Source: Escherichia coli (lineage in GTDB: Bacteria; Pseudomonadota; Gammaproteobacteria; Enterobacterales; Enterobacteriaceae). From it: a stretch of DNA of 64,000 bases. The stretch is from assembly GCF_044324785.1 (NCBI RefSeq), contig NZ_CP172127.1. The stretch is one strand, 5' to 3'. Position numbers and translations under genes: made by a program. Position 1 is the first letter of the stretch. Each line of letters opens with the position of its first letter. This document shows, piece by piece, positions 40,731 through 48,593 of this stretch. The notes under the pieces are model-generated. The model was not told the DNA's origin. It saw nothing but the letters and a program-made list of their open reading frames with translations, and made no database searches.

Positions 40731-40802
40731 TTAGTCTGGTTAAATACCAGTTCCGACAGGCTGAATCAATGCCAGGAGGGGCGAAAGTTTGAAGCAGGCC
40801 AC

Positions 40803-40830
40803 AAAAAAGCACCTGAAAAGGTGCTTTTTT
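40803..40830. terminator. bidirectional rho-independent terminator downstream of cysK
   Basis: aaaaaagcacc tgaaaa ggtgctttttt immediately after the cysK stop. Confidence 0.65.
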
Positions 40831-40852
40831 ACGCATTTTTAACAAGCTGGCA

Positions 40853-41824
40853 TTACTGTTGCAATTCTTTCTCAGTGAAGAGATCGGCAAACAATGCGGT
40901 GCTTAAATAACGCTCACCCGATGACGGTAGAATAACCACAATATTCTTGTTGGTAAAGCTTTCATCTTCTTGTAGTTTCAACGCCGCAGCAACAGCTGCT
41001 CCAGAAGAGATACCAGCAAGAATACCTTCTTCTTCCATCAGACGACGCGCGGTAGAAATGGCTTCTTCATTGGTGATGCCAATGACTTTGTCGACCAGCT
41101 TGAGATCGAGGTTAGCCGGGATAAAACCAGCGCCAATACCCTGAATTTTATGCGGGCCAGGTTTAATCTCTTCACCTGCCAGCGCCTGGGCGATAACTGG
41201 AGAATCGGTTGGCTCAACAGCGACAGAGATAAGATCGGTCTTGCCTTTGGTGCCTTTAATGTAGCGGCTGACACCGGTCAGCGTACCGCCAGTGCCAACA
41301 CCAGCAATAAATACATCAACCTGACCGTCGGTATCTTCCCAGATCTCCGGACCGGTGGTTTTTTCGTGAATTTCAGGGTTTGCCGGATTGCTGAATTGTT
41401 GCAGCAGCAGGTATTTCTCTGGATTGCTGGCGACAATTTCTTCTGCTTTTTGGATTGCGCCTTTCATGCCTTTAGCACCTTCGGTCAGCACCAGGTTTGC
41501 ACCTAACGCTTTCAGCAGCTTGCGGCGTTCAATACTCATGGTTTCTGGCATGGTCAGGGTGAGTTTGTAACCGCGAGCGGCAGCGACATAGGCCAGTGCA
41601 ATCCCGGTATTACCGCTGGTTGGTTCAACCAGTTCAACGCCTGGTTTCAGCACGCCGCGCTTTTCGGCATCCCAAATCATGTTGGCACCGATACGGCACT
41701 TAACGCTGAAGCTGGGGTTACGAGATTCCACCTTCGCCAGAATGCGTCCGTTACCGATGCGATTCAGGCGAACCAGCGGCGTGTGACCGATAGTCAGCGA
41801 GTTATCTTCAAAGATCTTACTCAT
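40853..41824 (-). CDS. cysK: cysteine synthase A (O-acetylserine sulfhydrylase A)
   Basis: 323 aa [44 protein letters not shown]... Confidence 0.95.
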
Positions 41825-42008
41825 GGCCTGTCCTTAACTGTATGAAATTGGGATACAACAGGTAGCATACCCGCTCAGAGAATATGCGGAAGTAAGGATT
41901 TAGCATATCTATATGCAGAAGGGAAATAATGACATGCGAGATGGAATAAGGGGCGGCATAAGCCACCCCTGTTTCACACAAACGGTTTACAAAATAACCG
42001 GTAGATTG

Positions 42009-42770
42009 TTACCGCCACATCGCGTGTTTATCGCGATAGCAATCGACCCACATCGCCGTCGCGCCACAAACGGCAACGGGCATGATGAACAGATTAAGCA
42101 ACGGGATCATCGTAAACAGGCTGGTTAAAGCACCAAACTGCATATTGGTGATTTTGCGTGTGCGCAGGGCGGTGCGCATCTCTTTAAACGGCACTTTGTG
42201 GTTATCGAAGGGGTAATCGCAATACTGGATGGCTAACATCCAGGCGCTAAACAGGAACCACAGTACCGGCGCGACGGTTTGCCCAATACCAGGGATGAAG
42301 TAAAGAATTAGCAATACAATTGCGCGCGGCAGATACCAGGCAAATTTTTGCCATTCGCGTTTCATGATTCGCGGCACATCTTTCATGATACCGAAAATCC
42401 CGGTATCTGGCGGTGTAGCGCCAGTCAATCGTGCTTCCAGTTGTTCAGCCAATAAACCGTTAAACGGAGCGGCAATCCAGTTAGCAATCGTTGAGAAGAA
42501 ATAGCCAAACACTAACAGCACGGAGATGACTGCCAGAGGCCACAACAGATAGCTCAGCCATTGTAACCAGTCCGGAACATAACTCATGAGAGTCGGGATC
42601 CAGACATCGAGTTGCGTAAATAGCCACCAGAATGCGCCCCCCATCAACAAAATATTGACCAGCAGCGGTAAAATAACGAAACGCCGAATCCCAGGTTGCG
42701 AGACGAGCTTCCAGCCTTGCGCAAAATAGTAAAAACCGCTGCGTGGGGCAGATGTGAATGATGAAACCAT
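42009..42770 (-). CDS. cysZ: sulfate transporter CysZ
   Basis: 253-aa polytopic membrane protein; position upstream of cysK. Confidence 0.85.
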
Positions 42771-42999
42771 AATCAGGATGAGCTCCTTTTGACCAATCCC
42801 AGGAAAATTCTGCGTATTTTACCGGGTAATTGCGCAATGGACAGTTAGGATATGTTCGAAAAAACAGCAAAAAGCACGATTTCATCTATCTTTGTGCTGT
42901 GAAAGTTAATAGTGCACTTGCACTTGAGGTAATCGGCAAATACTCTTAGTGAGTAAATGTTTGCCGTGGTGGCAAGGTGTTAGAACAACAGAGAATATA

Positions 43000-43944
43000 A
43001 TGATGCAGGATTTGCGTCTGATATTAATCATTGTTGGCGCGATCGCCATAATCGCTTTACTGGTACATGGTTTCTGGACCAGCCGTAAAGAACGATCTTC
43101 TATGTTCCGCGATCGGCCATTAAAACGAATGAAGTCAAAACGTGACGACGATTCTTATGACGAGGATGTCGAAGATGATGAGGGCGTTGGTGAGGTTCGT
43201 GTTCACCGCGTGAATCATGCCCCGGCTAACGCCCAGGAGCATGAGGCTGCTCGTCCGTCGCCGCAACACCAGTACCAACCGCCTTATGCGTCTGCGCAGC
43301 CGCGTCAACCGCAGCCGGTGCAGCAACCCGTGCAGCAGCCTGCCTATCAGCCGCAGCCTGAACAGCCGTTGCAGCAGCCAGTTTCGCCACAGGTCGCGTC
43401 AGCGCCGCAGCCAGTGCATTCAGCGCCGCAACCGGCACAACAGGCTTTCCAGCCTGCAGAACCCGTAGCGGCACCACAGCCTGAGCCTATAGCGGAACCG
43501 GCTCCAGTTATGGATAAACCGAAGCGCAAAGAAGCGGTGATTATCATGAACGTCGCGGCGCATCACGGTAGCGAGCTAAACGGTGAACTGCTTCTTAACA
43601 GCATTCAACAAGCGGGCTTCATTTTTGGCGATATGAATATTTACCATCGTCATCTTAGCCCGGATGGCAGCGGCCCGGCGTTATTCAGCCTGGCTAATAT
43701 GGTGAAACCGGGAACCTTTGATCCTGAAATGAAGGATTTCACTACTCCGGGTGTCACTATCTTTATGCAGGTACCGTCTTACGGTGACGAGCTGCAGAAC
43801 TTCAAGCTGATGCTGCAATCTGCGCAGCATATTGCCGATGAAGTGGGCGGTGTAGTTCTTGACGATCAGCGCCGTATGATGACTCCGCAGAAATTGCGCG
43901 AGTACCAGGACATCATCCGCGAAGTCAAAGACGCCAACGCCTGA
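43000..43944 (+). CDS. zipA: cell division protein ZipA (FtsZ membrane anchor)
   Basis: 314 aa from ATG at 43000: N-terminal TM ([26 protein letters not shown]), P/Q-rich linker, C-terminal FtsZ-binding domain. Confidence 0.85.
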
Positions 43945-44005
43945 TACACTTAAGGCATATTAACTCCTCTTCGAACCCCCGCTTGTCGGGGGTTTTTAGC
44001 ATTGA

Positions 44006-46030
<2,025 letters not shown>

Positions 46031-46250: not shown

Positions 46251-47245
46251 GCTTTATTGGCGCGGCTTTCCTGCTGCGCCTGTAACTGTTCGGTCTGGTG
46301 TTTGTATCGACGCGCCAGCACCGCACAGACCATCAATTGGATCTGATGGAAAATCATCAGAGGCAGCACCATCATACCGATCACCGATGTGGGGAAAAGA
46401 ATGTTTGCCATCGGGATGCCATTTGCCAGACTCTTTTTCGAACCACAAAAGACGATAGTAATTTCATCTGCCTTATTGAAGCCCAGTCGGCGTGCCATAA
46501 AGACGTTAACTACGATCACGATAGCCAGAAGAACGCAGCTGACCACCACGATAAACAGCAATGATCCCCAGCCAACTTTATGCCAGATACCATTAACAAC
46601 GGCTTCGCTAAACGCTGTATAAACCACCAACAGAATGGACGTCTGGTCAGTTTTCGCAATCCATTTTTTATTGCGCGACACCCAGTCACCAATCCACGGC
46701 CGGGAAAGATGCCCCAACACAAACGGCAGCAGCAGTTGCAGCATAATTTTACCGACCTGCTCAAGGCTGCCTCCCGCACCGTGAACATTCATCACCAGAC
46801 CAACCAGCAATGGTGAAAGGAAAATCCCCAGCAGGCTGGATGCTGACGCAGAACAAACCGCTGCCGCGACGTTACCGCCCGCCATTGAAGTAAAGGCGAT
46901 TGCAGACTGCACGGTAGCGGGGAGAATGCACAAGTAGAGAAAACCGGAGTAGAGCATCGGGTCGACATTTACCGGTTTCCACCAGGCAAACAGCACGCCC
47001 AGAATCGGAAACAATACGAAGGTGCTGCACATTACCCACAAATGCAGTCGCCAGTGCCCACCGCCAGCAATAATCGCCTCACGCGACAACTTCGCGCCGT
47101 GCATAAAAAACAGCAGGGCAATCGCTGCGGTGGTCAGATTTTCAAAGAAGGGGACGAAATCGCCTCTGGCCGGAAAGAAAGAGGCCAGCAACACCACCGT
47201 GATCAGGGTTAAGGTGAAAGGATCGAGGATACGAAAAAGTTTCAT
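46247..47245 (-). CDS. yfeH: bile acid:sodium symporter-family membrane transporter
   Basis: 332-aa polytopic membrane protein; divergent from the LysR-type regulator. Confidence 0.8.
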   Translation of the reverse strand: MKLFRILDPFTLTLITVVLLASFFPARGDFVPFFENLTTAAIALLFFMHGAKLSREAIIAGGGHWRLHLWVMCSTFVLFPILGVLFAWWKPVNVDPMLYSGFLYLCILPATVQSAIAFTSMAGGNVAAAVCSASASSLLGIFLSPLLVGLVMNVHGAGGSLEQVGKIMLQLLLPFVLGHLSRPWIGDWVSRNKKWIAKTDQTSILLVVYTAFSEAVVNGIWHKVGWGSLLFIVVVSCVLLAIVIVVNVFMARRLGFNKADEITIVFCGSKKSLANGIPMANILFPTSVIGMMVLPLMIFHQIQLMVCAVLARRYKHQTEQLQAQQESRANKA

Positions 47246-47334: not shown

Positions 47335-48261
47335 ATGAATTATTCTTTAAAACAATTAAAGGTTTTCGTCACAGTAGCGCAGGAGAAAAGTTTTAGTCGT
47401 GCAGGAGAGCGTATCGGCCTGAGCCAGTCGGCAGTGAGTCACAGTGTGAAGGAGCTGGAAAATCATACTGGTGTTCGCCTGCTGGACAGAACCACGCGTG
47501 AAGTGGTGCTTACAGATGCAGGGCAGCAGTTGGCTTTGCGTCTTGAGCGACTGCTGGATGAACTGAACAGCACGTTGCGCGATACCGGGCGTATGGGGCA
47601 ACAACTGAGCGGAAAAGTTCGGGTCGCTGCCAGCCAGACCATTTCCGCGCATCTTATTCCGCAATGCATTGCTGAAAGCCATCGCCGCTATCCAGATATT
47701 CAGTTTGTCCTGCACGATCGTCCGCAGCAGTGGGTGATGGAAAGTATTCGCCAGGGAGATGTCGATTTTGGCATCGTCATCGATCCAGGCCCAGTGAGCG
47801 ATCTGCAATGTGAAGCGATTCTTTCCGAGCCTTTCTTTCTGCTTTGCCATCGCGATAGCGCTTTGGCCGTGGAAGATTATGTACCCTGGCAGGCATTACA
47901 GGGAGCGAAATTGGTGTTGCAGGATTACGCGTCAGGCAGCCGACCGCTGATTGACGCAGCTCTGGCGCGCAACGGTATTCAGGCGAATATTGTGCAGGAG
48001 ATTGGTCATCCGGCGACGCTGTTCCCGATGGTAGCCGCAGGCATCGGCATTAGTATTCTTCCCGCACTGGCGCTGCCGTTACCTGAAGGTAGCCCGCTGG
48101 TGGTAAAGCGCATTACGCCGGTGGTGGAACGCCAGTTGATGCTGGTGCGCAGGAAGAACCGTTCACTTTCCACCGCCGCTGAAGCGTTATGGGACGTGGT
48201 ACGAGGCCAGGGCCGTGCGCTAATGGCTGGGCGGGAAGGGGATCCGCTGTATCAGATATAG
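47335..48261 (+). CDS. yfeR: LysR-family transcriptional regulator
   Basis: 308 aa, N-terminal HTH ([42 protein letters not shown]). Confidence 0.8.
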
Positions 48262-48593
48262 ATATCGATCTGAGTCGTTTTTTCAACAGGATTTGGAAGG
48301 GATGCATTCAAAGACAAACTCTGCTCTTTCTCCTGCGCCTTTTCTGCCTGCTGTCTTTGCAACTGCGCCAGTTGTGTTTCCAGTAGGGTGATTTGCTGCT
48401 GAATCAATTCGGCCTGTTTTTGCTTGTCTTCAGCACTGCCGCTAGTGTCTGCAATCTCTTTAATTTGTTGAGTGAGTTTGATGATTTGCTGACTTATCCG
48501 CGCAATTTGTGAAGCAACATCGCTACCTTCTGATGCCCTGTTACTACTCTGTGTTTGTATGGAAGGAATTGAAGTTGAAGAGATAGTGGCCAT
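48252..48593 (-). CDS. small Q-rich coiled-coil protein, FlxA-like
   Basis: 113-aa ORF with GAGGA 6 nt upstream of ATG; S/T-rich N-terminus then heptad-like Q/L/I repeats ([18 protein letters not shown]...[23 protein letters not shown]); overlaps the yfeR 3' end by 10 bp. Confidence 0.5.

Follow-up and report, generated by a model that had tools for sequence, protein, structure and literature searches.

The gene zipA lies on the plus strand of the window, the 64,000-nucleotide stretch of Escherichia coli DNA that was analysed, and is flanked in the order cysZ-zipA-ligA that is canonical for enterobacteria. The coding sequence (43000-43944) is 945 nt in length, comprising 314 codons and a stop, with the ATG at 43000 and the stop codon at 43942-43944, and encodes a protein of 314 aa. 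In the program-made list of open reading frames the zipA frame reaches to an upstream GTG at 42949, which would give 331 aa. The MMQ codon is the zipA start in the RefSeq annotation of K-12, N3 and 99_0288 and the 229 bp between cysZ and zipA (42771-42999, plus strand), a region containing the expression signals, has no mismatches to K-12. Downstream of the gene, the 70-bp spacer between zipA and ligA differs from that of K-12 at a single base, and this gap contains, at 43975-43996, a hairpin rich in G+C with a run of T after it (CCCCCGCTTGTCGGGGGTTTTT), which resembles an intrinsic terminator.

ZipA of the window scored 398.9 bits against the NCBIfam equivalog TIGR02205 (septum_zipA; cut-off 119.65), the match running end to end with residues 4-306 covering profile positions 1-284 of 284, while the Pfam profile PF04354 (ZipA_C) matched residues 180-303 with an E value of 2.8e-46. 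In keeping with this, a zipA annotation lies under the match in all 5,425 of the complete E. coli genomes that have one. ZipA is counted among the ten essential cell division proteins of E. coli (PMC5727935).

The K-12 protein has been divided into a transmembrane helix (residues 7-28), a charged region (29-85), a P/Q domain (86-185) and an FtsZ-binding domain (186-328; PMC6904479), and these limits, given in K-12 numbering, were transferred to ZipA of the window. On this basis the N-terminal transmembrane anchor (residues 7-28) is encoded at 43018-43083 and the charged region (residues 29-85) at 43084-43254, both on the plus strand, so that the predicted layout is that of a ZipA, a single N-terminal anchor followed by a charged region. 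The anchor residues are invariant across 19/19 aligned Escherichia/Shigella sequences, the charged region is the same as in K-12 and protein alignment revealed no differences between the window and K-12 over residues 1-104. The P/Q linker (residues 86-171; 43255-43512, plus strand), assigned on composition and by the fact that all length differences map to it, contains 25 P and 22 Q in 86 residues, within the range of 67-147 aa found in Escherichia/Shigella. It is followed by the C-terminal globular FtsZ-binding domain (residues 172-314, equivalent to K-12 186-328; 43513-43941, plus strand), supported by PF04354 and by the crystallised K-12 domain (PDB 1f7w), which matches residues 171-314 of the window protein at all 144 positions. 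Anchor, charged region and FtsZ-binding domain are therefore all intact, as is the upstream intergenic region.

The first-pass annotation had noted that ZipA of the window, at 314 aa, appeared 14 residues shorter than the K-12 protein, put at 328 aa. Alignment with the reference bore this out, with zipA of K-12 MG1655 (b2412, NP_416907.1) being 987 nt and encoding 328 aa, not 314 aa, and with the same 328-aa sequence present in PDB 9iue, such that the shortfall is genuine. The suggestion that the difference would be found in the P/Q-rich linker was likewise correct, since it falls wholly between residues 86-171 of the window protein and 86-185 of K-12. The K-12 protein (b2412; PDB 9iue for the full length and 1f46, 1f47 and 1f7w for the FtsZ-binding domain) and that of the window thus share the same gene context, residues 1-104, FtsZ-binding domain and upstream region, while ZipA of the window is without K-12 residues 105-122, has an additional VQQP and carries two substitutions in the linker.

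To resolve the linker at the nucleotide level the window DNA was aligned with zipA of K-12 (328 aa), strain N3 (332 aa) and strain 99_0288 (300 aa). The window gene is the N3 allele minus a single 54-bp block with no other nucleotide difference, its DNA being the same as the 332-aa E. coli allele (e.g., N3, WP_097439438.1) at all positions outside the deletion. The block codes for VQQPPEAQVPPQHAPRPA (V105-A122, residues 105-122) and corresponds to nt 313-366 of N3 zipA, or equivalently to 311-364 or 312-365, with each of these removals rebuilding the window gene with 0 mismatches. The K-12 and N3 genes differ by 10 SNPs and by one 12-bp tandem unit encoding VQQP that is missing from K-12. The window has two such units, GTGCAGCAACCC and GTGCAGCAGCCT (VQQP VQQP; 43318-43341, plus strand), as mapped from the indels in the DNA alignment, where K-12 has only one. 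The N3-type sequence of the window also differs from K-12 by the linker substitutions P148S and V178I (numbered as in K-12; residues 152 and 182 in the 332-aa protein), with a third difference between the N3 type and K-12, R for H at position 120, falling within the deleted block. The P/Q linker accordingly has 86 residues in the window, compared with 100 for K-12 and 104 for the 332-aa allele. The gap of 14 residues is the net result of two independent indels (-18 + 4 = -14), because the window lineage has lost 54 bp (18 aa) and the K-12 lineage is without 12 bp (4 aa).

The 54-bp loss is the derived state. The segment VQQPPEAQV.PQ... is kept in K-12, N3 and 99_0288 as well as in Escherichia albertii (331 aa) and Escherichia marmotae (330 aa), and the window allele is nested free of SNPs within the N3 type; on both grounds the 54 bp were lost in the window lineage and not gained elsewhere. 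The junction lies after 43311, with its placement ambiguous within 43309-43311, and adjoins the retained left copy CCGCGTCAACCG (P-R-Q-P; 43300-43311, plus strand) of an imperfect direct repeat identified by mapping of the deletion. The right copy CCGCGTCCAGCG, which is lost in the window, agrees with CCGCGTCAACCG at 10/12 positions. Imperfect direct repeats of 12 bp, spaced by 54 bp, thus bound the deletion, and the exact homology at the junction amounts to 2 bp (CG) only.

In-frame repeat slippage had been put forward at the outset as the cause of the length difference, and in the form of tandem-repeat slippage this explanation holds for one of the two indels only. The 12-bp difference from K-12 (GTGCAGCAACCC / GTGCAGCAGCCT) is, on its own, a fit to classic tandem-repeat slippage. 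For the 54-bp deletion, Tandem Repeats Finder reported no array in zipA and the block is unique sequence between 12-bp imperfect repeats, so that contraction of a tandem array was rejected. Misalignment of the QPVQQP peptide repeats, which do not bound the deletion, was also considered and is excluded, as this would have taken out 60 bp (20 aa) to leave a protein of 312 aa, when the observed loss is 54 bp. Slipped mispairing between CCGCGTCAACCG and CCGCGTCCAGCG would be the most plausible origin of the 54-bp deletion, the features of which fit either replication slippage or a microhomology-mediated deletion. This mechanism is one that we infer, since sequence rich in CAG and CCG contains many matches of this length, which could flank a random breakpoint by chance. 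The 300-aa allele of 99_0288 arose by a separate deletion of 96 bp with a junction ambiguity of 13 bp, and as this deletion is independent the same kind of event has recurred in the region.

A short linker in DNA of this composition could in principle be an artefact of sequencing or assembly, for instance if repetitive linker sequence had been collapsed in a gene that is truly 999 bp. The linker is compositionally repetitive in its P and Q codons, and searches with the complete gene and with a 101-bp probe for the junction found the junction of the 314-aa allele in none of 5,426 complete RefSeq E. coli genomes, with each match split in two. Against this, public databases already contain the identical 314-aa protein (UPI000BE13E26 and EEU9146809.1 among others). 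It occurs on 291 contigs carrying the E. coli label and in 433 collection blocks that draw on independent assemblies of NCBI, ENA and Logan, invariably in the cysZ-zipA-ligA context. Moreover the repeats on either side, imperfect and just 12 bp in length, are much shorter than any read, and the reading frame is kept. An independent assembly, GCA_050521405.1, also has zipA DNA the same as that of the window, with 21 SNPs in the 6-kb flanks and none in 42622-45447. Taken with the recurrence of the protein across assemblies, identical zipA DNA within differing flanks rules out a one-off assembly error and makes an artefact very improbable. The absence of the allele from all 5,426 complete RefSeq genomes does indicate that it is not common. 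In a sample of 40 complete genomes taken at even intervals along the ranked matches, zipA was 999 bp (the 332-aa class) in 17/40, 987 bp in 22/40 and 903 bp in 1/40. The 314-aa ZipA is a known and catalogued ordinary polymorphism, one of many natural variants of tether length.

The comparison with GCA_050521405.1 is also informative as to the background in which the allele is found. Since identical zipA lies in differing flanks, the allele is present in at least two slightly diverged backgrounds. The differing sites include 14 in cysK/cysZ and 6 in yfeH (40798-42621 and 46397-46831), with zero across zipA and most of ligA, and this distribution suggests that recombination breakpoints flank the zipA-ligA block common to the window and GCA_050521405.1.

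Over its whole length (1-64000) the window is 98.0-98.7% identical to strain N3, the nearest of the 5,426 complete RefSeq E. coli genomes, with identity to N3 climbing to ~99.5% in the 12 kb around zipA. As such the complete genomes seem to include no representative of the source lineage, and the region has a mosaic appearance. The window contains no marker of serotype or sequence type. Other differences in gene content from N3 lie elsewhere in the window. Between yfeR and the tRNA-Lys/Val cluster there is a 113-aa FlxA-like open reading frame (48252-48593, minus strand), at a site where K-12 and N3 carry yfeN-xapA-xapB-xapR over ~4.4 kb; ST69-type genomes share the window arrangement, and the site is therefore a known presence/absence polymorphism. 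In the gap between cysM and yfeK (~36525/36526) a stretch of ~957 bp with yfeS, encoding a WGR-domain protein, is missing relative to N3, and ST69-type genomes are also without it.

That a window of 98.0-98.7% identity to its nearest complete E. coli genome should carry a zipA of the N3 type raises the question of whether recombination brought the allele in from a different species or from a divergent lineage, rather than a deletion in situ giving rise to it. Outside the 54 bp, however, the gene is the same as an ordinary E. coli allele, and the ZipA proteins of E. albertii and E. marmotae, at ~86-87% identity in BLASTP local alignment, retain the segment that the window has lost. Import is on this evidence very unlikely, with deletion from the 332-aa allele remaining the preferred reading.

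Variation in ZipA length is widespread across Escherichia and Shigella. Among 123 Escherichia/Shigella ZipA sequences from a protein search there were at least 24 length classes of 292-375 aa, in which the part outside the P/Q linker was exactly 228 aa in 119/123 while the linker spanned 67-147 aa. Protein alignment showed that the indels cluster at residues ~100-150, with many different deletions and several duplications. Several alleles shorter than that of the window are abundant, the 295-aa form of Shigella flexneri being present on at least 1000 contigs, the 309-aa form on 827 and the 308-aa form on 371. Like the window allele, the other short alleles (295 aa in S. flexneri, 300 aa in 99_0288 and 301-310 aa in E. 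coli) have in-frame deletions in the same P/Q part and keep the N- and C-terminal domains invariant. Their breakpoints are unlike that of the window and most remove more residues, and because the breakpoints differ the short alleles represent independent events. Given that zipA is essential and that lineages with shorter alleles are abundant, tethers well below 86 residues must be compatible with life.

The recurrence of deletions in the linker could be taken to indicate that a shorter tether is adaptive, for example by tuning how far the Z-ring lies from the membrane or how FtsZ bundles, such that the allele has been selected and is not neutral. The same deletion hotspot has been hit repeatedly in several abundant lineages, and the persistence of the window allele across ~0.3% flank divergence with a 2.8-kb identical block around zipA is compatible with its spread by recombination. 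Shared ancestry, however, explains the identical block equally well, leaving the recurrence of indels as the sole support, and recurrence is equally explained by a mutational hotspot under weak constraint. The linker lengths of 67-147 aa show no sign of a preferred value, as would be expected of such a hotspot. An adaptive origin of the shorter tether is therefore very unlikely. The more specific proposal, that the N-proximal half of the P/Q tether is an in-frame indel hotspot in which particular lengths, 86 aa included, have been selected in individual lineages via Z-ring-to-membrane geometry or FtsZ bundling, is highly improbable.

Taking these observations together, the window very probably carries a natural length variant of ZipA, an essential protein of the divisome, produced by an in-frame deletion of 54 bp in the 332-aa allele. 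In the proposed sequence of events an ancestor with the common 332-aa allele would have undergone a single deletion of 54 bp that took codons 105-122 out of the disordered P/Q tether, in its N-proximal half. With the anchor, charged region and FtsZ-binding domain untouched, FtsZ filaments would still be tethered to the inner membrane through a tether ~17% shorter (86 aa vs 104), and within a lineage of E. coli the allele has since been inherited or has spread.

A fully functional ZipA with a shorter tether is the most likely outcome as judged from the sequence. The 314-aa protein is predicted to bind the C-terminal peptide of FtsZ and to support cell division, because its FtsZ-binding domain is identical to that of K-12, the allele persists in many isolates and zipA is essential. 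According to PMC6904479, which here cites Ohashi et al. (2002), the P/Q domain forms a tether that is flexible and unstructured. The same paper argues that the ZipA linker is possibly more compact and restrained than a free chain, in which case the length of the tether might matter somewhat. Within the literature searched, no study was found in which the length of the ZipA linker had been altered experimentally. Judging from the extent of natural variation, the functional effect is probably negligible and the variant neutral.

The discrepancy of 14 residues with K-12 is genuine strain variation and not the product of a frameshift, a pseudogene or mis-assembly, and the gene should therefore be annotated as intact zipA. 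The length of zipA could also be used as a simple marker of lineage. More broadly, natural populations tolerate tethers of 67-147 residues, a natural experiment suggesting that the length of the ZipA linker is only loosely constrained.
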